Origin: Craspedostauros australis
Lineage: Eukaryota
Direction of reading: 5' to 3'
NCBI GenBank assembly: GCA_030167865.1
Contig: JALAGF010000584.1
Location: 1 to 34,806, forward strand
DNA: 34,806 nt
Under the pieces are notes generated by a model that worked only from the letters and a program-made list of their open reading frames with translations, was not told the DNA's origin and searched no databases. This document shows positions 6,314 through 34,806 of the stretch, piece after piece. The position numbers were made by a program, and so were the translations under genes. How positions within the stretch are numbered: position 1 is the stretch's first letter; each line of letters opens with the position of its first letter.

Positions 6314-7672
6314 CTATTCCTCCGGATACTTGCACCCGCATCGCTTGAAATAGTTCTTGTACTGCCGCGATACGGTCTTGAACGCGGTACCGTGCGATGC
6401 CGGTGAAGTCTGTGGCAGCTGCACCAGCGTCACATTCTCGTGCGTGAGCCTGCCTTGCGTGGCGAGGATCATGTTGCCTTGGCTCACGTCCTCATCGGGA
6501 TAGAACAGGGATTTGCGATTCTGCAACGACGTGCCGTCGAGGTAGGCGTACCGCGCCGTGGCCTGCGACATGAAGTAGCAGCCGCCCAAAGCGTAGGCCG
6601 GCGTTTTGAACAGCGGATTGTCGCAGACCTTCTTCCAGTACGATTTGCGGCAGACCGTGCGCGTGATGAACCAACCCAAGTAGACGTAAGTTTGGCTCAG
6701 CTGCGTCTCGATTGACCGAAGGTATCCCCAGAACCGATCGACGAACATGATGGCGTCGCTGTCGAGCTTGCCGACGTACTGGATGTTGAGATCCTGGCGT
6801 TCCAATGCGACCAACGCGGCGGCGTACGTGAACCACGCCTCGCTCTTGCCGTCGTTGGCATTCTCGCGCACGCTGAGGAAGGTGATGTCATTGTGCGTCG
6901 CGATTTCTGTGGGATCGGAGTAGTTGTACTGCGGAGATGCGACGATGTAGCCATCGGCCTTGTCGCCGCATTCGGGGTAGTAGCAGACGGGTGGTTGCGT
7001 CTTGGGATCGCCGCCGCCCATGACGAACGTATACACGAAGAGACAGGCTCTGGGATCCGCCTGTAACGTCGTGTTGGCAAGCAGCTGATTCAAGCTGCAT
7101 ATCGTCTTCTTTTCCTCCTCATGGATGACCGGCTCGATGGATTTGGTGTAGTAGGAGAGGTACGTCTGCCGTATGTTGTCGCGCTGTACTTTGGCCTCAT
7201 CATTGTCGTAGGTGAAGATCCCAAAGAGATACCGTCGACTCGACAATGGCGGTCGCAGTCCATCTTCGCCCTTCTCCTGCAAGACGGGCTGTTCGGGCGT
7301 CGGTTGCACAATGTTTAACGTCGGCACTCCTCGTCGCTCGGGCATTGGTGGTTCTTGCGTCGTCTTCGTCTTCGTAGTCATAGCAGAGGAAGTTGTGGTC
7401 GTCGCCTTCGTGGCAGCTGTGGTCGCAACAGTTGTGGTGGTGGTCTCTTGTACAATCTTTGGCTGTTTCATTTCTTCCGATGGGGGCATTTCTGGCCGCA
7501 GTTTCGAGACTGCCATGGCCTCGTGCTGCGCAATTATCTGATGGACGTCTCCCATCCTGCTGTGCAAGAGGTAGCCGCTGATGCAAGCAAAGGTCACCAA
7601 CATGGCGACCATGATGGGGAAGGCCATCTGCCTGCTGTTGGCCTTGCTTCGTTTCGTTGTGCGGCGCGCCAT
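6314..7672 (-). CDS. Type II membrane glycosyltransferase, GT31 (beta-1,3-galactosyltransferase)-like; paralog A
   Basis: Probable ATG at 7672 (MARRTTKRSK, matching the paralog's MAQRTRHK). Basic cytoplasmic tail, one TM helix and a Thr-rich stem. Catalytic region has R..IR.TY, EN.NDGK, YVGKLDSD (DxD), YALGGCYFMS and EDV, all GT31-style motifs. Confidence 0.78.
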   Translation of the reverse strand: MARRTTKRSKANSRQMAFPIMVAMLVTFACISGYLLHSRMGDVHQIIAQHEAMAVSKLRPEMPPSEEMKQPKIVQETTTTTVATTAATKATTTTSSAMTTKTKTTQEPPMPERRGVPTLNIVQPTPEQPVLQEKGEDGLRPPLSSRRYLFGIFTYDNDEAKVQRDNIRQTYLSYYTKSIEPVIHEEEKKTICSLNQLLANTTLQADPRACLFVYTFVMGGGDPKTQPPVCYYPECGDKADGYIVASPQYNYSDPTEIATHNDITFLSVRENANDGKSEAWFTYAAALVALERQDLNIQYVGKLDSDAIMFVDRFWGYLRSIETQLSQTYVYLGWFITRTVCRKSYWKKVCDNPLFKTPAYALGGCYFMSQATARYAYLDGTSLQNRKSLFYPDEDVSQGNMILATQGRLTHENVTLVQLPQTSPASHGTAFKTVSRQYKNYFKRCGCKYPEE

Positions 7673-8239
7673 TGTACGCTGTGTGTTGTTGGCGTTTCTG
7701 TCGGCGTTGCTGCTCTGTAACTGGCCAAGATGAAGATGTTGTTGATGTTGTTGATGTCGCTTTCTTACTTGCGTTGATGAGAAGAACGATGGTGATGATG
7801 AACGAGTGTGGTTGTGTGATGTGTGTCGGTCATTGTTTCTGTTCCCTGTTTGTGGAAATCTCAACGGTCGCCACTTCCTGGTTGTCCAATCACATGCAGA
7901 GAATGGAGAACTGCAAGATGTGCGTGCAGATTGTGGGTCGTCAGCGATAGGAACTTACCAACCAATGCCACTCCACTCTCCTCCACTCCACTCCACTCCA
8001 TTCTCATGTACAGACACGACGATCTACGTAATCGTGCCATACTCTATCTGTCACAAATACAAATGGTGTGTCATAACTGTCAATATGCATAGTGGTCATC
8101 TATGCATATTGACAATAACTGCGTGAACTACGAGAATAACAGTCTATTATATGAACATTGTACCGTACTCCATTGTTTGGAAACAGGCCGAATTTGAAGC
8201 AACCTCCTTTTGCCATGACAAGCACCAATACATACATCA

Positions 8240-9679
8240 TCACTTCGTCGGCCAATCCTCGGCCGTCGCCATCATCTCCTTCGTGTTGTTGTACAAACAC
8301 CCACACCGCTGGAAGTAGTTCTTGTACATTCGGCGCGGCGTCTTTTGACCAGCATGCGACGCCGGCGACTGCGGTGGCAGCTGCATCAACGTGATGTCGT
8401 CCACCGTCACGTTGCTATCGTTGCCCAGCATCATGTTGCCCTGACTCATGTCTTCATGATGCGGAAAATGCAACGACCGACGATGGTCGGACGACGATCC
8501 GTCGAGGTAAGCGTTGCGCAGCAGGGCCTTGGAGATGATGTAGGTACCGCCCAAAGCGAATTTGGGGGCCTTGAACAGCGGGTCCTTGCAGAGGTTGTCC
8601 CAGCGCCCCGTCGAACATTGCTTCTTGGTGACGAACCATCCCAGCAGCACGTACTTGTCGCGCAGCTGCCGTTCGTTGTTGTGCGTGTAGTTCCACAGTC
8701 GATTGACGAACATGATGGCGTCGCTATCGATCTTGGCCGCGTACTGGATGTTGAGATCTTCGCGGTCCAGCGCGATCAGGGCGGCGGCGTACGTGAACCA
8801 CGTTTCCGATTTGCCGTCGTCGGCATTCTCCTTGACGGTGAGGAAGGTGAGATCATTGTGCGTTGCGATCTCGTTGGGATCGGAGTAGTTGTTGTTGGGG
8901 AACGCGACGATGTAGTCATCAGCCTTGTCGCCGCATTCGGGGTAATAGCAGACGGGCGGTTGCGTCTTGGGATCCCCGCCGCCCATGACGAAGGTGTAGA
9001 CGAAGAGACAGGCTCTGGGATCCGCCTGTAACGTCGCGTTGGCAAGCAGCTGGTTCAAGCTGCATATCGTGTTGCGTTCGGATGGGTGGATGGTGGGCTG
9101 GATCGACTTGGTGTAGTACGAGAGGTATGATTTGCGAATGCCCTCTCGGTGCAGTCTCGCGTTGGGGTTGTCATACGAGAAGATTCCGAAGAGATATCTG
9201 CGGGGAGACAACAGCGGTGGCAACGTGTTGTTGCCCATCATGCTAGTCGTGCTGTTGGTCTCTCCTCCTGCTCCTTCTCCTATTCTCTGTTCTTCTCCGA
9301 TAGCTTCCACCGCCGACGCTGTTGTCGCAGCTGTTGTCGTTTCAGCTTTTGTGGTGGTTGTTTCTGCCGTCGTTGAGGCTGGCGTAGTAGTTGTAGTTGT
9401 TGTTTCTATCGCCACCGTCGACGGAACTGAATCTGCGATCGAGGATGGCTCATGCTGCACCTGCGGTTCCAGCGGCAATCCTTCGCCCAAATTCATCTCC
9501 GCCTCGGCTGCCTTGAGAGATAATTCAGAAGCATTGATTTGTCGGTACGAGAGGAACGCGTGGATCATCACGAAGAGTGTCAAGACGGCCATCAGCACCA
9601 GCAGCCTTGCGTTGGTGCCATCGGTCTTGCGCTTCCTCGAGCCTGATTTGCGGTTCTTGTGTCTTGTGCGTTGCGCCAT
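8240..9679 (-). CDS. Type II membrane glycosyltransferase, GT31-like; paralog B (tandem duplicate)
   Basis: 479-aa ORF with the same architecture as paralog A. Motifs YAAKIDSD, FALGGTYIIS and HEDMSQGNM. Aligns by eye with paralog A across the whole catalytic domain, ending NYF.RCGC.Y. Confidence 0.8.
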   Translation of the reverse strand: MAQRTRHKNRKSGSRKRKTDGTNARLLVLMAVLTLFVMIHAFLSYRQINASELSLKAAEAEMNLGEGLPLEPQVQHEPSSIADSVPSTVAIETTTTTTTPASTTAETTTTKAETTTAATTASAVEAIGEEQRIGEGAGGETNSTTSMMGNNTLPPLLSPRRYLFGIFSYDNPNARLHREGIRKSYLSYYTKSIQPTIHPSERNTICSLNQLLANATLQADPRACLFVYTFVMGGGDPKTQPPVCYYPECGDKADDYIVAFPNNNYSDPNEIATHNDLTFLTVKENADDGKSETWFTYAAALIALDREDLNIQYAAKIDSDAIMFVNRLWNYTHNNERQLRDKYVLLGWFVTKKQCSTGRWDNLCKDPLFKAPKFALGGTYIISKALLRNAYLDGSSSDHRRSLHFPHHEDMSQGNMMLGNDSNVTVDDITLMQLPPQSPASHAGQKTPRRMYKNYFQRCGCLYNNTKEMMATAEDWPTK

Positions 9680-12600
9680 TGTTGATTTAGAGTCGGGTAG
9701 AGTCGATTAGAGTACTCTCTCTCCAGAGAGATACAGAGATACAGAAAGCACAGTGATTCTTTCTCGCTTTGCTGGCGATGCACCAGTGTCCGTCCTGGTG
9801 ATTCCCTTTTGCGTTGATGGCACAGGACTCTACTGTTCTTGACAATGCAATGTGTCTGGTGGAGCACTTGTACTGGTATGTATTGCAGTGATCTTCGATT
9901 GCAGCAACGGCCCTGGTTTGCTCCGCTGTCCTTCAGACCTTGTTTACGCAATGCTCAGCCATACTGTTTGTGTTGCGTCTGTGTTGTGTCTTCACTGCTT
10001 TGTGCGTTGGGTGGGAAAATAGACGTTGAGAAGCAACATGGGAGGTGCGGCGATTCTATAATAATGATTTCTATTTGAAGCGAATGTCATTGTCGCCGTT
10101 GATTGGCGCCGCGAAGTTGGGTGAATCCGAGATCGACATCAACTCCAGCAAAAGATACAGCCACACAGTGGCAGGAAGAACGCGACAGTACATGATGAGA
10201 TGACGACTCGGCAGGCATTCCTCCGACTGCGTATGATACGTATGGCGAAGGCGAAAGAGCGTTGGTTGGATGGTATTGCAGAGTTACGAGTATTGTATGG
10301 TGCAGCTGAGCCCAACAGATAAGCGCGCTGTACTGTGGTGGACTGAACTGCACTGTTTTAGTGCTATGTTCGATTGTTCTTCTTCCCAGACGACATCGTG
10401 TTTTCGTAATCAGTCCACTCGGTACATGGGTGCGCCAGGAAACAAGGATTTGCGCAGGCGTCTCAACTGGCGCCACTCGTGTGAGATCGCCGCACCCGTC
10501 TGTTCTCTCCCCCATCTTCAACCTTGGTCATGCTCTGGAAGGTCCCTGCGTTTCCCATCGATGTCGCCATCGTTCGTTCTTTGGATGATGCAACGGAGAA
10601 GATGTGCTCAGCTTGCACTGAAGGGAGAGAGAGATAGGAAATGAATGCGGGCAAAATGTGTAAAACAAAGTTGGATGTTGATGAGTGGGGAATGCGGCTT
10701 CAATGCGCAAGGAATGCACAGAGTGGCGACCTGAAGGATCGAATCGTTCCGTTGCCACAATGGATGGCGTGGAGGAGATGGAGGAAGACTCGGGGTATAC
10801 TAATGTTGATAAAGGTAATCCGCATCGCAATGAATTGCATTGGATGCCAGTAGTCATAGGCGTGAAGTTTTCGTCACTGTCTTTCCATCTCCCTCCGCCC
10901 TTTTGCGTCCTTGCGTGTGCCTTGCGAAGCTGGCATGCTTTGCTGGTCGACGGGATGGTCACCGAGACGACAGAATACTCGTATCCATCTGACAGTACGA
11001 ATAACAAATTGGAAGTGTTCTCATTAACATCATCAGTGATGATGGTTCTGAAGGTGTCCTAAGATTGGTCTTCATTTGGATATTGGTTCTGTCGTCTCGT
11101 TTTTCCCATTCCGGCTGCTCGACCAACTGGGCGAGCCGAGCCATGCTGCGGTTGGCGAGGGCCACTCCGGGGTGTGGCTTTGCAATCGGAGTCAAACACG
11201 AATGGGGCATGCACGTCACGTCACATCGTAGCACAGCGAGACCATTCACCATTAAGCTTGTCCACATTGTTGTTCAGGCTCATTATATTCAGTTTTTCGC
11301 GATCATCATGGACGCTGTGCTGTGTTGTGCCGTGTGCACGGTCTGCTCGTGCATTGGAGCTCTTGCAGTGATTGTCAGGCATTGAGGCGGGGATCCTGAG
11401 TGGCATTTCCTTGCATGGACATGTTGGATCCACTCTCGATCCATGCCACACACTCAAACGCGACAAGCACCTGCGCGCAGTCTTACCTGATCTTGCATGG
11501 CCACGACGAACAATGCGTATCCTGGGGCGGCATCGTGATTATTCGCGCTGCGCGCAGCATCGCAGATGTTGTGGCCAATCTCCTCGGAGGCCGTTTGGCA
11601 CGACGCATCATGCAGACATGCAAGGGAGTGGCGATTCCGTTACAGTCGCTCCATGGATGGGTTGTCACATGACGCTGCTGACCTTTGGGATGTCATTGTG
11701 AGTTGGAATCATGCGCCGTCGTCATCTTGCTCATCTTGTTCATGTGATTGATGTCGTCATCGTCAAGGCACCAGTCGTTCACCTGGTCCAGACGGGGTTG
11801 GTTTTGGATTTGTGACACTCAAAGATGAGGAGGAGGAAATCAAAGGCAACACAGGATCCATGCATCACAAAGACTCATACCACCGCACAATGCAATCTGG
11901 TGGACTTTTGTTCGCGATTCCATAACGTGTGGCTGTCGCTCACACAACAAAATTCACATGTTCCGTCTGTCCGCACGCGGCAGTCGCAAACGGTTCATCT
12001 CAGAACGTCCATCGTCCGTCTCAGAAGGTACTGTGCAATGCTATTTGTTGTTTCGGAACGATACGTTATTCCGCTTTCTCCCGGTCATTGGCGAACCCAC
12101 AGAATCTGCCAAGGCGAGTCAAAGGTTCCAATGTGTTCCTCTCGTCACATTTTGTGTCTGGTTCATTATCTGTCCATTTTCTTTTCCATGGCTCCACACG
12201 CAGCGGCGATCCAGAGAACGTCACATCGATTTACGCCCAGAACACATGGATCAGAGCTTCTTGGCTGCGTCGCTTGCGAGCGGAGCCCCATCATTCTTCG
12301 CACGGCGCTCCAAGAGCAACGGCATCGCACGGCATTGCGTCACAACTCCAAACGATCGTCATCGAGTTTGCCACGGGCATGGGAGGGCTCGAAGAGCGCT
12401 TTCAGAAATTGATGGATAAATCTCAGCAAATAGGGCGTCGCTGCTTGGTGATCGTGCTACCTATTATTGGCTTTGCCCTTCTTTGTTGTGTGGGCGAAGC
12501 CTCTCTTGGTCTGCAAAAGAGCGGTAGAAACAGAAAGAAACAGAGATCGCGGCCGACATCGACAGGCCAGAACATCACTACGAGCGGCTGCCCACTCACT

Positions 12601-27550: not shown

Positions 27551-28230
27551 CTACTCCACGCGAGTCGACACACTGGAGGTTGTCGAGGCAGTTGTCGACC
27601 ACCTGGAGCAAATCGACGAACCTTCATCGGCAACGGTGTCCCCCTTCGTTTCAACATCCGAGCGGTGGTCCTCGAATACGGAGGTTACCCTTTCTTGAAT
27701 GTGTGCGGCCTTGGCAATGATCACAGTTGCAAATGCCGTCGATACAAGCTCATCCCCATCACTCCCTCTGGTTTGTGGTTGGAATGAAAGGGAGCGTTTC
27801 TCCTTCTCCTTCTCGTTCTGCTTTTGCCGCTGCAGCAACTGAGCAGCGGCCACAGCATTGGCATCTTCCTGCCCACGCAGCTGCTCGACGAAGAAATTGG
27901 GTTCGGTTTGTAGCGCACTGAGCTGATTCCTCATGCCGCACAACGCCCTCGTGCTCTTGACTCTGCGCTCGTTCCTCCGCATCTGCAATAATTGGATATT
28001 CTTGCGCAGCGACGTAACTTCTCGCGGCGTTCCTCCGCGACTGGGTCTGCACAATGGTCGTGCGGTGCTTGTCCATCGCAGCCACGAAGCCTGGGCTGCA
28101 TGATACGTACGGTTCGGCTCACCACCACCATCATTCTGATGTGCGCCTGACGCTCCTCGAGCAGGGCGATATTCTGCTTTTCGACTTCTTGGACTCTCCG
28201 CGTGTTTGCGCTGTCATCCTGGACACTCAT
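27551..28230 (-). pseudogene. Possible frameshifted or spliced coiled-coil gene fragment
   Basis: Coiled-coil-like peptide appears in successive different minus frames (VQEVEKQNIALLEERQ; AAMDKHRTTIVQ; EVTSLRKNIQLLQMRRNERR...NQLSALQ). No family recognised. Confidence 0.25.
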
Positions 28231-28512
28231 CGTGGTGCACTACGGTCGTATCGCTGAGGCGTATGATGGGAACCACGGTGGGCGTGAATGGAGAGTGATG
28301 ATTGCATGGTGCAAAACACAGCTCTATTCAATGAAGAACCGTTGAGTTGAGTTGAGGCACCCTGCTCCATGCTGTGATGATGATGACTGAGGACGACGTG
28401 ATGTTTTGGAACTCGTTCTCGTCATCGTTTTGCTGGTGCTGTTCCACTTGATGTTCACCATGATGTTCATCTGTCACATGACGTTGTTGATGGTGCAGTT
28501 GTTGTCGGAGGT

Positions 28513-28516
<4 letters not shown>

Positions 28517-28550
<34 letters not shown>
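28517..28550. repeat. (CT)n microsatellite
   Basis: About 17 CT units, read directly. Confidence 0.92.
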
Positions 28551-28551
<1 letters not shown>

Positions 28552-28945
28552 ACGGACCAAACTCCGCAAAGTTGACTCGCCAACAATCGTGGCAGACATC
28601 AGTTTGCGTTGAGATGGCTACCAATCACATGATTCAAACATGGACGATTCAACCCACGACACATTTCGAAGTAATCTACGGCATCATGTACAATTAGTAT
28701 TCGTTGAGTAATGGATGATGTCGCAACGCATGGTCAGGTCGGCGACGAGACTGAAGGTGGATCTTTCCATCACGGCAGCAAGGCACGGGAATTTCGTTGA
28801 AACTGGTACTCAGAGACAAACCAGCAGTCCCGGATGCAATCGTGCGTCACCGGACACATGCTCGTGCCCATTCGGCCACACGAACAACAGTGAAGGTGTC
28901 ATACAAACGTTAAACATACGTTATGACGGTTATTCAGCGACCAAC

Positions 28946-29135
28946 TAGTTTCAACGATTCTCTATTAGTTTCAACAAGTCGGGGTTAGTTTCAACGGTTC
29001 TTGATTAGTTTCAACAAGTCGGCGTTAGTTTCAACGGTTCTTGATTAGTTTCAACAAGTTGGTGTTAGTTTCAACGGTTCTTGATTAGTTTCAACAAGTT
29101 GGTGTTAGTTTCAACAAGTCAGCGATAGTTTCAAC
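28946..29135. repeat. Tandem array of 10 x TAGTTTCAAC at an exact 20-bp period, with alternating 10-bp linkers (40-bp higher-order unit)
   Basis: Copies start at 28946, 28966, 28986, 29006, 29026, 29046, 29066, 29086, 29106 and 29126. Linkers mostly alternate between GGTTCTTGAT-like and AAGTCGGCGT-like. Confidence 0.97.
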
Positions 29136-30695
29136 AGTTGCACAGTAGTGATTGACTCGTGTTTGGATGATCCTGAGAGCATCAGTTGGTTGCGGGGCCA
29201 ATCCGTGGCAAGTGACATCACTGGTTTCGGCTGTCGTCCGCATCCTGACGCCAAGAAAAGACTGTCACCAAGACACCCAACACAACAACACGACAATGGG
29301 GAAACAAAACAAAACTCTGCAAGGATCGTCAAATGCCATGTACGGCATTGCAACAACCATCAACCCAATTCCAGATCCAAGCATGTCAACGAAACCGCCA
29401 TGGAAAGCTTGGTGGATGGGCAAGGGGGCGCTGTCAGAGCGGCTCATTTGCGACAGCGGGAGCGAAAACAGCGAATGGCACAAAAAGGTGGCAAATTTCC
29501 ACGTTGGGTTCAGGCTATTTGTGGGAGATACAAGCCATTCCAACAACCATGGATAAGCAAATCGCATTGAGGAGATCAAGAAGAAGCCTCCTACGAAGTT
29601 CGAGTTGGAAAGACTGCCTGGAACGTTCGGACGGACAGGATCAAGTGGAGGGCAATCGGTGTTCGAGAGGTGGCATTGCATGCATCACCTGGCTTTGCTG
29701 GTGTGGTGGCACATGTGAACATCCATCACATTGCCAAACGACCCATATAAGATGTCTTCATCATCAAGTCGGGAATGGGGTGGAGAAGTGGGGATTGGTT
29801 CGATTGAGTGGGAGAGGTGGAAATCAAGAAAATGTGGCAGTCGCATTTCCGAGACAAAGAAAGCTGGCCATGGTACCAGCATCGGGATGAATTGAAATGC
29901 AGAGATACATCCTGAGGCATTGGAGGATGCATCAACATGCCCTCAATGAATCAGGGATCGAGGTATGATGCTTGGGGGAGGAGGAACATAGATGGTTGTG
30001 AACAGGAGGTATGGTCGGATGAAGCGGCTGTGTGAAGATCGACCCTCATTGTCAAGGTGTTGGTTTTCAGCAGTGAGCTGACAATGCGGATTGAAGGGAG
30101 ATACACTGGTGCATGCTTGCCAGGGATGGATACAAATGGGGTATATGGAGACAATGAGGTGTGCAAGTGAACGAAATGAGACATTCATGGGCATCGTCTT
30201 GGATGGCAAAGCAACGGCAGCATGGTCCCATCCAGAATTTTGCGCCACACACAATCGCACGTTGGCAACAAAATGATGTTAAATTTGAAGTCAATTTCAA
30301 TTTAAGTCCAATATTCTTATTCGCAACCAACGAGTTGTTCACATGGTACACTTAGTTTTAATTGTAGATGATGTGGTGTTGCGATATAGCATCATAAGCG
30401 TTTTTGGGATGGATTGCAATTTTGCTCCAGACTGGGCTACGCAACACGACTAATCCCACGCTGGAGATCTAAAAACTGTACAACTCGTGCTATCGGTTTG
30501 CCAAGTGAGTGTGGTGCATCGCGCGCCCAGATCTGCACAGAGACGGACACCACAGCACACACACAACAAGAACCAGCAATCATATCTGAAACCAAATACA
30601 TTGAAGATGATTGATAGTTAATTACATGCAGAGTGTTGAGTTCCTACTATTGTTAATTTTCTCCGGGTGTGGTAGTGATCGTGAGCGCAATGGCC

Positions 30696-31172
30696 TCACT
30701 TCTTGGACGTCTTCCTGTTGTTCTTTCGCTGCTGCCAGTAGAGTGATTCATACTTCGATCTCTTTGCTGCGTGAAAGTGCTTTCGAAACTGATCGATCGG
30801 AAAGACCTGATTGCAATTTCGCAGGTTGTGGACCTGCTTTGATGAGAGGCATTTCACAGCATCATCTTGCATGTCTTGCTTCAGCATTCGCTGTGCTTCC
30901 GATCCATCCCATCGCAGCTTTGATGCACGAGGTGTTGAGATGTGCATCCGTTCAAATGCTGCAAGTGCTTCATCAGCTTTGTTTGCTTCTTCTTCGTACT
31001 TCCTCCATTTCTTTCTTAGTCGATTGAGATTGTTCCGAAAGTTGGTGTACTTGATGCTGCCAAACTCAACCCTCCCTTCGTATATCTGCTTGGGAGTCAT
31101 CTCTGGTGTGATGGCTCCCATCTTCAGGTCCTTCTCCAGCACTGCTTTTGCGTCGGCCCATTTCATGGGCAT
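30696..31172 (-). CDS. Small basic helical protein with two internal repeats; putative transposon DNA-binding accessory protein
   Basis: 158-aa ATG ORF. Repeat 1: KWADAKAVLEKDL...TPKQIYEGRVEF....YTNFRNNL. Repeat 2: RWDGSEAQRMLKQDM...SSKQVHNLRNCN..FPIDQFRKHF. Basic NLS-like tail RKNNRKTSKK. Confidence 0.7.
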   Translation of the reverse strand: MPMKWADAKAVLEKDLKMGAITPEMTPKQIYEGRVEFGSIKYTNFRNNLNRLRKKWRKYEEEANKADEALAAFERMHISTPRASKLRWDGSEAQRMLKQDMQDDAVKCLSSKQVHNLRNCNQVFPIDQFRKHFHAAKRSKYESLYWQQRKNNRKTSKK

Positions 31173-31882
31173 CCTGTCTTGCGATGATGATCACCAGGCT
31201 TTCACGATGAGGGTTGCGATGGTGGCTGTGCCAAGAAGAGACGATGTATGTGATGATGGTCTTGCTGCGGTGTCAATGGACTTGCATTGAAAACACTCGA
31301 TGTCACCAATTTGGATACCATGGATGCGCACCATGCCATTCGATGTAGTTTGCTGGCGTTGTTGCAATGGTGCCCTGGGTGCACCTTCTGCTGTTGCTGC
31401 CAAGGTACTGGTATCAAGATTGTTGCTTCATCTGGTACCTTTCCGTGCAACATACCGTTTATCCTGTACCCGCATTTGCACATGACCATGGTGCTGTTTC
31501 CGTGTGTGTCCGTTGCTGACCATGTCCTTGCACATGGTGCTGTTGCATTTCAATCTCCTGGCTTGTGTTGCTCATCCGGTTGTTCGAATTACAGTTGGCC
31601 TTGCTTTCTCCAAGTTGGTGGGACCACATTCGTATTATACTTGGCACTGTCATTGTTTGTGTAGGTATGGTCTTGTGTGAAGTGATCATCATCAGCACAC
31701 AGAGAAATCTCTTCCTCTCTTCCTCGTGTCATTGCGTGCTCTTCTGTGGGTGGTGTCGGTGTTTGAATGGCAGCCAAAATTGGACTCTGCCGAACCATCA
31801 CAAAACCCACCAGCAGAGAAATTCAGGAGCCAATCAAGAGAACGCATTCGGCACCACACTCTGCGCCACACTCCAGCACACG

Positions 31883-33771
31883 ATGGAACAGATTACTTCT
31901 CCCGCGCCGCGGTCCGCCCGCCAAAAAACTCCCAGCCGTTCAAATAAGAAGTCGGTGACTCGTGAAGTCGATCTCTCTGTGTTGGATTTTTTGCTCGGAG
32001 CAAGTCGCTTGGACACATTCAAAGCTCACTGTGACGACAATCAGCACATCCATGGCAAGCGCAATTCTGATCTGCGCGAAGCCAGCCGCCAACGAATGTA
32101 CTACCTCAGAAGACGGCTGGACCGAGCTGGCCTTTTGGCACTACAGCAAACACACAGAGAGGCCCTTGAGCTGGAGAATGACAGAGGAGATCACAAACCA
32201 GCCAAGGAGACGATCGACACGCCAACAGTCGCATCAACACCTCCCACTTCCGTGCCAACCGCACCAATATCAACAGTATCGACAACAACCTCACCACCAC
32301 AAAGACGAAGGATCAACTTCAGCTCATACAAGAACAAGATGGCGAAGAACAGCGATGACACCAGCAACTTCACCAACGAAGATCATGCTGGGATGGAGTA
32401 CAAGATAGACCTCGACCGCCCTTTCCAGAATGCCGACAACACGATCATCTATCGTGTCAATGACGTGCTGCTGGATGGCCGCTCCCTGGACTGCCTTGTC
32501 ATCCGCAAGTTCATTCTGGACAAGGATGATGTCACGAAGGTGAAGGCATCCCTGTGCGATGATGGGATCTCTATCAAGATTGAGGAGCCAAGCGTCCCAG
32601 CCGTGATGCTCGAGAGATCCACACAAACAATGTTTCTCACAAAGAAGGGGAACCATGATCCCAACATTGGGAGGGAAAAGAATGCCTTCAACAAGCTCGT
32701 CAACAGAGAGCTCAACAGAGGTGCAGAGACCAAGTACACCTACTTCATCTGCCCTGATGGCATGGTGCTCTCCACCAACTACTTTGGAAACGAGCCAGAG
32801 CGCCTCGCGAAAACGTACCGACCGATCGCAAAGCATCACATCCACCACAAGAGCCACATGGAATATCAAATTCCAATGAATGTGGTGTACTGGAAAGTTG
32901 CGATCAAGGGATTCGATGGAAAGGTGGACATCGAGGAAGACCACAGCGAGGGTGAAGACGATTTCTTCGCAATGATGGGCAAAGCCGGTGCGTAAAACGA
33001 GCATTTGATTCGACCTGATTGACCTGTGCTTTGCTCTACCATTGTAGTAACATCAAATTAGACTGATTACTCACAAACAAACACCAACTGCTCTTTCTTC
33101 ATTGACGTGCACGCACCCAAACTGTCATGATTCGCACAGCATCGCTTACCGTCGCCGGTAGTGGCAGGCATGATGCAAATGACAACATGAGCATGAGCGA
33201 CGTCTCAAGCTACGCAGAGAGCCCAGAAGACCCTACGCCAAACCAAACCTTCAGCCATGGCGGTGTCATCCATCCAGGTCGTCCGGACCCAGTCCATAGC
33301 AATGATGATGGCATCTATCCAATTTGTCCGGACCCAGTCTATAGCAATGACAATGGCATCCATCCAGCTCCTGCGAATCCGGCTGAAACTGTGGAAGGCA
33401 TCGATGCATTGGACTTGCAATTGCCATTTGCGCCAGCAGATGCTCTGAAGCCCGCTGCGGAAGAACCAGCAGCAGTTAAAATTGCGACAGTGGCGCCTGC
33501 TACTGTTGCTTGCTGTGCCCCTGCAGCTTCGAGCAACCCAACAGACACAATCATGGGCGACGAAGGGCAGCACCTCAAGCGCTCTCATCCCGTGCTGCGC
33601 CACAACAATCTCCCGAAGAAGATGAAGGCTGACAAGCATGAAGAAGACAGCAAGCTTGCATCAATTGATCTTGCATCGATTGATCTTGCAGTCAACACAC
33701 GTGTTCCAAGCAGTGACACTGATTCTGAGAGTGTTGACGAGGCACTCGAACTCTTCTATTCCCAGGCATGA
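31883..33771 (+). CDS. Transposon-associated hypothetical protein: 370 aa if unspliced (31883-32995), or ~578 aa if intron 32988-33139 is removed
   Basis: Likely ATG at 31883 (MEQITSP). N-terminal helical domain (CDDNQHIHGKRNSDLR...RMYYLRR), Thr/Pro linker and a beta-rich domain. Donor G|GTGCGT at 32988 and acceptor CGCACAG| at 33139 would fuse the 33127..33771 ORF in frame. Confidence 0.68.
33266..33368 (+). repeat. In-frame 45-bp tandem duplication (PDPVHSNDDGIYPIC / PDPVYSNDNGIHPA)
   Basis: GTCCGGACCCAGTC(C/T)ATAGCAATGA occurs twice, 45 bp apart. A separate 15-bp repeat (LASID x2) lies at ~33655-33690. Confidence 0.85.
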
Positions 33772-33843
33772 AGCAATCTGTTGCAAACATTGAAGTATTC
33801 TATAAGTAATCAACTAGTTCCTACTACTCGACTCCCATGTTGT

Positions 33844-34806
33844 TTAGATGTCAAATATTGGATGGCCATGGTCGAGTTCGTACTGAATCAAAACACAGCA
33901 GGCCTCAAATAGGCACTGATGCTTGCTCAGTTGATTGCGGTACCCATTCGCAAGTGCTTGGAAGTTCTTGATTCTTCCGTTAAAGCTCTCATGCCGTGCT
34001 CTTGCTCGATTCTTGAACTTCCTCACAGCAGCAGAATCACACGGATTTGGGGCACTGATTGTAGGCTCATTGTTGTACCCCCCATCAGCAATTACCAGGG
34101 CATTCGGTGGGATCTTGGATTTGAGACCATCTGGCTTGCGATACATCACCAGATCTGAAGTGGAAGCTGGAAATGGCCCATTGATCCACACCAGCTTGCT
34201 CTCTGCCAGGGATATCCCGAGCTCATACGTCAAACCAGCTGAGTGAGACTTGTGAGAGTACCACTTGGTTCCTGGGTCCATCCGTGGTTCTTGGATCCTG
34301 ATGTGAACACCATCAACAGTGATGATGAAGTGTTTATCGTCTCCTGCAAGTTCTGTTGTGTTTGGCGGCCAGATGACCTATTGATGGTGTACCAGAATGA
34401 AAAGAAAGAAGAGAAACATGTGAGAGAGTTCGTTCGAGAGAAGGAAATGAAAGAAGCATTCCAGCACAAGATTCCCTTTGTCACACTTGCCTTTTGTGGC
34501 AGCAGGGCTTGAATAGCTGGCAAGTACGACCAGATGAGACCACGGATAGTCTTCTCATCCAAATTCCATCGGCCAGCCATCACATGCTCTGTGCAGTATG
34601 TTTTCAGCCAGTTCAAGACAACAAAGAGATCGCGCGGACGCGGACGTTTGAATTGTGCCGTTTGGCTGTTGAAGAGATCCACGAAGAGGGAAGCAAAGCT
34701 TTCAGGGCACAGTCCGTACGTTGCAGCAAAGCGAGTCTGCATCGTGCGATCTGCCATCTTTTCCTGACGGAAACCGGCATACTTGAGGCCAAGTGTGAGC
34801 ACTTCA
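33844..34806 (-). CDS. DDE transposase, PIF/Harbinger-like (DDE_Tnp_4); exons >34806-34491 and 34377-33844; 5' end outside the window
   Basis: Exon 1 has an HTH-like region (LNWLKTYCTEHVMAGRWNLDEKTIRGLIW). Splicing 34490-34378 gives ...LPQK|VIWP...FIITVDGVHIRIQEP...WYSHK...WINGPFPASTSD...VIADGGY...RARHESFNGRIKNF, which contains the catalytic acidic residues with no stops. Confidence 0.92.

Follow-up and report, generated by a model that had tools for sequence, protein, structure and literature searches.

PIF/Harbinger elements are the textbook example of a DNA transposon that requires a second, DNA-binding protein, and domesticated gene pairs such as HARBI1/NAIF1 derive from them. In the zebrafish element Harbinger3_DR, a Myb-like protein that recognises a 9-bp motif in the subterminal regions is required for nuclear co-localisation with the transposase (PMC9710019), and both this element and Ping/Pong of rice need a second element-encoded protein for transposition (PMC9710019; PMC2836001). 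A survey of PHIS transposons groups them into Harbinger, Nuwa and Pangu, each with two open reading frames (ORFs) and a Myb/SANT partner, ISL2EU with a YqaJ partner, and the single-ORF Spy, with its results text giving the second ORF of Pangu as having 'no known motifs' (PMC4482050). Here we describe a relative of these elements in a stretch of 34,806 nt from Craspedostauros australis (assembly GCA_030167865.1, contig JALAGF010000584.1, forward strand, positions 1 to 34,806), referred to below as the window. The region from 28.9 to 34.8 kb very probably represents the greater part of the body, with one end, of a cut-and-paste PIF/Harbinger (PHIS) transposon of the type bounded by terminal inverted repeats (TIRs), with four genes: a transposase gene, T, and three accessory genes, X, Y and W. 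As part of the same reading, its lineage is a multi-gene one that is common among intron-bearing (eukaryotic, probably diatom-like) contigs of aquatic metagenomes.

Like Harbinger3_DR and Ping/Pong, the system described here combines a DDE_Tnp_4-type transposase with short subterminal repeats and, in relatives of the window element, with TIRs. It differs from these canonical elements in its three helper genes, none of which has a Myb/SANT/MADF signature, in the shortness of its transposase (~300 aa), and in the ends of six TIR-bounded relatives, which begin with CWG; at these ends no TWA (TAA/TTA) duplication was seen, the junction triplets being CAG or CTG. NuwaI, as described by Han et al. 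2015 (PMC4482050), shares the 5′-CWG-3′ junction triplet, and its average size of ~4.5 kb is near that of the smaller relatives reported below; it differs in the description given there of animal hosts only, two ORFs, a Myb/SANT partner and TIRs starting with GGG. Pangu (Repbase Harbinger2) resembles the present system as a PHIS element with a non-motif second ORF and with hosts that include a heterokont and algae (PMC4482050; PMC12730594), and differs in having ANT duplications, TIRs starting with AG or GG and a transposase that falls next to bacterial IS5 in trees (PMC4482050). The ends of the six relatives (L033, L054, L048, L037, L009 and L074) show no evident ANT duplication, and TIR starts of the Pangu type (AG or GG) were not seen in them.

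PHISTA of rust fungi (Kojima 2025, PMC12730594) is, as here, a Harbinger-superfamily element with more than two genes and a third protein lacking Myb/SANT; it encodes a transposase, a TET/JBP dioxygenase and that third protein, and differs in its fungal hosts, its TA duplications and its known-enzyme cargo. Because PHISTA carries three proteins, a multi-gene PHIS element with a non-Myb partner has precedent. Harbinger4_TP, a Repbase family, has been placed near Nuwa and has 3-bp duplications (PMC12730594), and Harbinger-like elements have been noted in Thalassiosira pseudonana (PMC2806351). A Harbinger-superfamily transposon in a diatom-like genome is thus to be expected. In Repbase naming, the 'TP' of Harbinger4_TP presumably stands for Thalassiosira pseudonana. 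A search of one library of papers, which does not include Repbase, returned no description of the Y/X/W accessory set, of the module that it forms, or of accessory proteins of diatom Harbinger elements. The Y/X/W architecture may already be catalogued in Repbase.

The transposase and gene order in the window

The features of the element are as follows, with coordinates and strand in the window.

28946-29136, plus strand: array of ten exact TAGTTTCAAC cores phased at 20 bp; the spacers alternate, which makes a 40-bp super-unit
29137-30695, no strand: unassigned stretch of 1.56 kb between the array and the stop codon of Y
30696-31172, minus strand: gene Y (ORF158), 158 aa, isoelectric point (pI) 10.0, with 35 lysine and arginine residues among the 158
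31173-31882, no strand: intergenic region between the divergent genes X and Y, a presumed bidirectional promoter
31883-32995, plus strand: gene X, 370 aa, stop codon TAA at 32993-32995
33127-33771, plus strand: gene W (ORF214), encoding an acidic, low-complexity protein of pI 4.6, with its stop 72 bp from the stop of T
33844-34377, minus strand: exon 2 of T, 177 codons plus stop (stop codon at 33844-33846), with the DDE_Tnp_4 core
34378-34490, minus strand: intron of T, 113 nt, phase 0, with a GCAAGT donor and a TAG acceptor
34491-34806 (window end), minus strand: exon 1 of T, with an open frame to the window end

Exon 2 of T (33847-34377) matched the Pfam family DDE_Tnp_4 (PF13359) with an expect value (E) of 7.1e-12 and contains the catalytic residues D (in TVDGV), D (in IADGGY) and E (in RHESFNG). 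The columns of these three residues are invariant in two alignments of the T family, and 35 of the 36 aligned family members also matched DDE_Tnp_4. T therefore has both the DDE_Tnp_4/IS5-like domain and the D-D-E triad by which a PIF/Harbinger transposase is recognised. At the exon junction, the translation runs from IQALLPQK into VIWPP and aligns without gaps to intronless relatives (~295 aa). Of the 15 related loci with a split T, 11 have their intron at this codon boundary, as a clean phase-0 GT..AG intron of 61-87 nt; of the other four, two are ambiguous and two were missed by the intron pattern search. The GC donor (GCAAGT) of the window copy lies at 34489-34490 on the minus strand, at the site where the 11 related loci have GT.

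The original prediction of an intact-looking DDE transposase holds for the catalytic domain and the open frames, and needs correction at the N-terminus, which is truncated by the window end. The alignment places the first T residues of the window within a conserved N-terminal block, and T is cut there because the start codon of its relatives precedes the first T codons of the window by 8-16 residues; the protein is about 300 aa long. The T-side end of the element thus falls beyond the window. Relatives of the exon-2 part of T number 292, with identities of 45-59%, the closest being 54-59% identical. One relative is a transcript of the diatom Pseudo-nitzschia arenysensis (49% identity), and the label 'diatom' for the lineage rests on this single named relative. 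A full-length T gave no match to plasmid-borne IS elements in tblastn at E 1e-3, and T had none to Protein Data Bank (PDB) sequence profiles.

The 72-bp tail-to-tail gap between T and a plus-strand gene had been given exactly, ORF214 stopping at 33771 and the stop codon of T starting at 33844. What had been taken for a single plus-strand gene, convergent on T and divergent from the small basic protein Y, proved to be two genes, W (33127-33771) and X (31883-32995), so that the earlier count of at least three genes is borne out and extends to four. Y, X and W form a module in which Y is divergent from X and W follows X on its downstream side; relatives differ in how the module is oriented with respect to T. 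The frames of all four genes are open in the window copy, which may for that reason be active.

Linked genes and termini in related loci

Linkage of the accessory genes to the transposase was examined in 80 metagenomic loci, which were fetched by likeness to T alone and whose six-frame ORFs were searched with profiles of X and Y. X was found beside T in 28 loci and Y in 30, with both in 18 and either in 40, confirming the predicted linkage. Among the 16 loci of at least 6 kb, X was present in 14, Y in 14 and both in 13, and the majority of the loci without X or Y are contigs shorter than 3 kb. The set contains near-duplicates (L017/L023, L073/L077/L074, L059/L069, L034/L037 and L063/L080), and the 18 loci with both X and Y are distinct. 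In the same profile searches, the other ~29 kb of the window gave no match to X or Y. In 14 of the 18 loci with both genes, X and Y are arranged head-to-head at a distance of 275-629 bp, and the order seen in the window (T, then X on the opposite strand, then Y on the same strand as T) is the commonest, occurring in 7 of the 18.

Six of the related loci contain elements with recognisable TIRs:

L033: TIR of 33 nt, 97%; element of 7,661 bp enclosing T, X and Y
L054: TIR of 30 nt; element of 7,750 bp enclosing T, X and Y
L009: TIR of 74 nt, 93%; element of 8,845 bp enclosing T, X and Y
L074: TIR of 21-24 nt; element of 5,076 bp enclosing T, X and Y
L037: TIR of 13 nt only, E 0.01; element of 7,393 bp enclosing T, X and Y
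L048: TIR of 34 nt, like those of the four-gene elements L037 and L053; element of 2,184 bp (L048:10-2193) with T only

Since the TIRs enclose T, X and Y in five relatives, X and Y are genes of the element and not host genes, and in these relatives the boundary of the element does not fall between T and the other genes, an outcome that would have undone the original prediction. L033 and L054 are 73% identical, with homology that begins within 3 bp of their left TIRs (2976 in L033 and 4893 in L054). On the right side the homology continues beyond the TIR of L033 by 7 bp and stops 4 bases short of the L054 contig end, so that only the left edge is resolved by this pair. Repeated 9-mers are confined to the end zones of L033 (9/9), L054 (8/8), L048 (8/8), L037 (6/6), L059 (8/8) and L006 (14/14). 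Each element has its own short motif, and that of L006 recurs at a 10/20-bp phase. In L006:4100-5460, T is flanked by palindromic 20-bp units (TTGCGGCAGGCTGCCGCAAT), with about five copies to the left and three to the right.

All 12 ends of L033, L054, L009, L074, L048 and L037 begin with 5′-CAG or 5′-CTG. GG follows this CWG only in L033 and L054, and the bases after it vary among elements (GGCG, GACC, CAA). Between L033 and L054 the middle base of the CWG differs, yet within each of these elements the two ends, read inwards, have the same one, a pattern that does not easily fit either a simple target duplication or independent mutation of the TIRs.

Larger relatives have additional genes. 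A family of large cargo ORFs (Z, 730-1,185 aa) was found at L037:1717-3906, L054:9027-11525, L079:326-3880 and, frameshifted, L033:7090-9590; its only Pfam matches are those of the L079 copy to a SCAND3-like zinc finger and to a zinc ribbon. L009 and L023 have large ORFs that are unrelated to it. L003, a close relative of the window element, has between T and Y an ORF with a SET (histone methyltransferase) domain (L003:2876-3469, Pfam E 5.9e-7), which may be a captured chromatin gene. The window copy carries none of this extra cargo (Z, the large ORFs or the SET ORF).

The accessory proteins Y, X and W

Y is the small basic two-repeat protein of the original prediction and consists of two copies of a three-helix module followed by a basic tail. 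The consensus of the module is W..S.AK..L..DI..G..P....VY...P.F....Y..F..RL..LR, and the AlphaFold model of Y (predicted local distance difference test, pLDDT, 93.2) has two three-helix modules that each open with W..S.AK..L..DI. The in-frame codon signal of Y is +0.21. A phmmer search with Y found relatives in 14 of the related loci at E<1e-4, and an iterated profile extended these to 30 of the 80. Word-indexed protein searches returned no relative of Y and the ESM Atlas no usable match; Y had no Pfam match, and 18 members of its family had no Myb/SANT/MADF match at E<=1. Against the PDB, Foldseek returned nothing at E<=0.001 for Y, and sequence profiles nothing meaningful (best E 0.053). An exhaustive structural aligner gave Z scores of 4.5-6.2 to FF domains, a segment of the P-element transposase, homeodomains and Myb-like plant DNA-binding domains; by the aligner's own scale, scores up to 6.2 for Y and up to 8.0 for X fall in the range of common arrangements and are uninformative. 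By analogy with the second protein of other Harbinger elements, Y is a candidate DNA-binding and nuclear-import helper.

The reading frame of X has an upstream in-frame ATG at 31667, which gives a 442-aa ORF (ORF442). Relatives of X begin to align at residues 57-132 of this ORF, near the Met at 31883 from which the 370-aa protein is counted. Among 1.84 billion representatives scanned exhaustively with HMMER, 31 proved to be distant relatives of X, the best at E 6.9e-14 and 26% identity, covering both halves of the protein, and as judged from these sequences X is a real protein family. Its in-frame codon signal is +0.25. Word-indexed searches with ORF442 found nothing, and the ESM Atlas gave no usable match; X belongs to no Pfam family, and 27 of its members had no Myb/SANT/MADF match at E<=0.01.

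The model of X has a pLDDT of 75.9 overall, with both domains above 90. In the model, a helical domain at the N-terminus (residues 23-106) is joined by a disordered linker to a C-terminal beta-sandwich (~168-350), and the protein ends in an acidic helix; the acidic stretch and helix at this end are conserved. Residues 23-106 resemble winged helices of the PadR/MarR type (Z 5.6-6.9, within the range of common arrangements), and residues ~168-350 resemble the beta-sandwiches of HSP20/CS proteins (p23, Sgt1, Shq1) with Z up to 8.0, likewise in the common-arrangement range; the best compact match of the sandwich has a root-mean-square deviation of 2.5 Å over 80 residues. Foldseek found no PDB match for X at E<=0.001. 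The N-terminal domain of X and the repeats of Y are not detectably related (probability 1% in a profile-profile comparison of X with Y). In one relative of X, the 800-aa protein P0122, the N-terminal helical region of X is matched five times, beside a DUF7083 and an RNase H1 N-terminal (Cauli_VI) domain, and so the N-terminal domain of X occurs as a repeat in other architectures.

W contains the motif IMGDEGQHLKR (33550-33582), followed by a basic patch. The motif recurs in seven loci (L026, L002, L060, L051, L053, L007 and L038) and in all of them directly follows X on the same strand or, where the contig lacks X, is convergent on T. The 11-aa peptide of L026 is identical to that of the window, with 7 of the 11 codons differing synonymously. 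Searches of the 80 loci with the whole ORF found no relatives, and W had no match to Myb/SANT/MADF (threshold E<=0.1) or to any other Pfam family. Its codon signal is weak (+0.08). W can be taken, from sequence comparison, as a separate fourth gene encoding a disordered protein, and one that is fast-evolving with a constrained short motif and basic patch, because whole-ORF searches miss it and yet the motif recurs at a fixed position. W also contains three in-frame tandem repeats of 45 bp (15 codons) at 33253-33387, with the repeated peptide HPGRPDPVHSNDDGI and variants of it. As had been predicted of the accessory proteins, no canonical Myb/SANT domain is recognisable by Pfam in X, Y or W at E<=0.1, or in the members of the X and Y families.

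The putative subterminal array, alternative explanations and possible mechanism

The predicted 20-bp array is present at 28946-29136. When one mismatch to the TAGTTTCAAC core is allowed, the window has 12 matches against 1.17 expected, a number reached by none of 100 shuffles, and Tandem Repeats Finder reports a period of 40 with 95% matches. Similar arrays are a common feature of the family. Of 66 loci, 27 have tandem arrays with a period of 9-31 within 450 bp upstream of T, the density being 1.29 per kb there and 0.18 per kb elsewhere in the loci (~7-fold), and short-period arrays in the host DNA of the window number 1 in 28.5 kb (0.04 per kb). L002, which is among the closest T relatives, has about eleven TTTTGCTGAAACT(A/G) units upstream of T, with a core, GCTGAAACTA, that is identical at 9 of 10 positions to the reverse complement of the window core. 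By analogy with described Harbinger elements, the array would represent putative subterminal repeats, binding sites for an accessory protein or the transposase, at the Y-side end of the element. The left boundary is likely to lie near 28.9 kb, with the true terminus probably slightly left of the array. The array has no inverted partner within the window.

To the left of the element, the first 28 kb of the window contain host genes, among them an NTE-type patatin phospholipase and glycosyltransferases, and the DNA is eukaryotic nuclear. Total GC content is 0.51-0.60 in these 28 kb and 0.46-0.51 from ~29 kb rightwards. GC content at third codon positions (GC3) is 0.53-0.63 in T, X and Y and 0.57-0.73 in six host genes, five of them at 0.66-0.73 and the sixth at 0.57, so that the two ranges touch. 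Two tandem paralogous minus-strand ORFs (6314-7954 and 8240-9706), with families of repeats 1,965 bp apart at 72-87% identity, look like a host gene duplication; the first of them matches a galactosyltransferase weakly. The interval that separates the element from the last host-like ORFs contains a perfect (CT)16.5 microsatellite at 28518-28550, ~400 bp to the left of the array.

Several observations weigh against reading this region as a mobile element with its end at the array. The evidence of mobility comes from the relatives, the window copy showing one end region only and its T-side end lying outside the window. No target site duplication common to the family emerges, as the CWG triplets form a direct repeat in only two of six elements (L009 and L074), and for this reason CWG as a target duplication, which it is in NuwaI, cannot be told from CWG as the first bases of the TIR. 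The accessory set is not universal: L019 lacks X, and L045 and L012 lack Y, despite enough flanking sequence, and L048 and L006 are elements with T only, which indicates that the accessory genes are not needed in cis. The array lies 1.56 kb from Y, as against a distance of ~300-650 bp between Y and the terminus in TIR-bounded relatives, and the intervening DNA is unexplained. The likeness to L002 is modest, the count of shared 8-mers being reached by 10 of 2000 plain shuffles and by 100 of 2000 arrays of shuffled units, and words of the same length are common to the window array and the upstream regions of several other loci.

The stretch between the array and Y (29137-30695) had been described as a decayed ORF-like segment, a description that found no backing: none of the six-frame ORFs of the 80 loci matches it at E<=0.01, it has no match to the T, X, Y or Z profiles, also with filters off, and its ORFs have no Pfam match. 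Remnants of T, X or Z were searched for across 28000-31000 and none was found. An alternative explanation is that the array is an unrelated minisatellite and that the true Y-side end lies within 29137-30695, in which case the left boundary given here would be ~1-1.7 kb too far left. This would agree with the shorter Y-terminus distance in the TIR-bounded relatives, with the absence of anything conserved in 29137-30695, and with the modest support for the likeness of the array core to L002. We nevertheless consider it unlikely, as short-period arrays are a hallmark of the ends of this family and are rare in the host DNA of the window, GC is low from ~29 kb rightwards, and a search of 28000-31000 for termini like those of the relatives gave only chance-level matches of 9-10 nt.

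It is still less probable that the cluster is a domesticated, immobile remnant kept by the host as a gene set, in the manner of HARBI1/NAIF1, with the array as a relic. Only one end region is visible, host selection would explain the open frames equally well, the 1.56-kb spacer between Y and the array has no explanation, and co-domestication of a Harbinger transposase with its partner is described (PMC9710019). Against domestication, the phased array is retained with ten intact copies, the GC3 of T, X and Y is below that of five of the six host genes, and the relatives that share its gene order are diverse and bounded by TIRs; the 54-59% identity of the closest T relatives is also that of a diversifying transposable element family and not of one conserved host gene. 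That T alone is transposon-borne, with X, Y and W as host genes that neighbour it by chance, can hardly be credited: the three have no known transposon-related domain and their codon signal fits a host model equally, yet the linkage is conserved in 40 of the 80 loci, including nearly all long ones, X and Y lie inside the TIRs of five elements, and W keeps its position next to X in seven loci.

For the four-gene transposon, the described Harbinger systems suggest how transposition may proceed. By analogy with Harbinger3_DR and Ping/Pong, Y (most likely), and possibly the N-terminal domain of X, would bind the phased subterminal repeats, and the repeat-bound accessory protein would bring T into the nucleus and to the ends of the element. 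T would then cut at the TIRs, and the element would be reinserted. X and W would add steps that canonical Harbinger elements do without, such as assembly, chaperoning or interaction with the host.

We tentatively advance one further proposal, to be taken as a whole and with some doubt: that the window element belongs to an undescribed, diatom-like lineage of the Harbinger superfamily in which a conserved module of three proteins from new families stands in for the single Myb/SANT helper. In this proposal, which draws on the predicted structures, Y would be a highly basic, tandem three-helix DNA binder that reads the array, X, with its winged-helix-like and CS/HSP20-like domains, could couple the transpososome to chaperones or chromatin, and W would be a disordered protein with the motif IMGDE.xH.KR, all three being needed for transposition or regulating it.

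If this is true, a widespread lineage that retains the transposase but has three other conserved proteins would show that unrelated parts can serve to rebuild the helper function. The three protein families X, Y and W, none of them in Pfam, would gain a genomic context and a testable role, and for Y in particular the predicted structure is confident and a 10-bp sequence, repeated at a 20-bp phase, is a candidate target. Profiles of these families would help the annotation of diatom and algal genomes to recognise such genes as transposon-borne and not as lineage-specific host genes, and the element, which is possibly active, might serve as a genetic tool.

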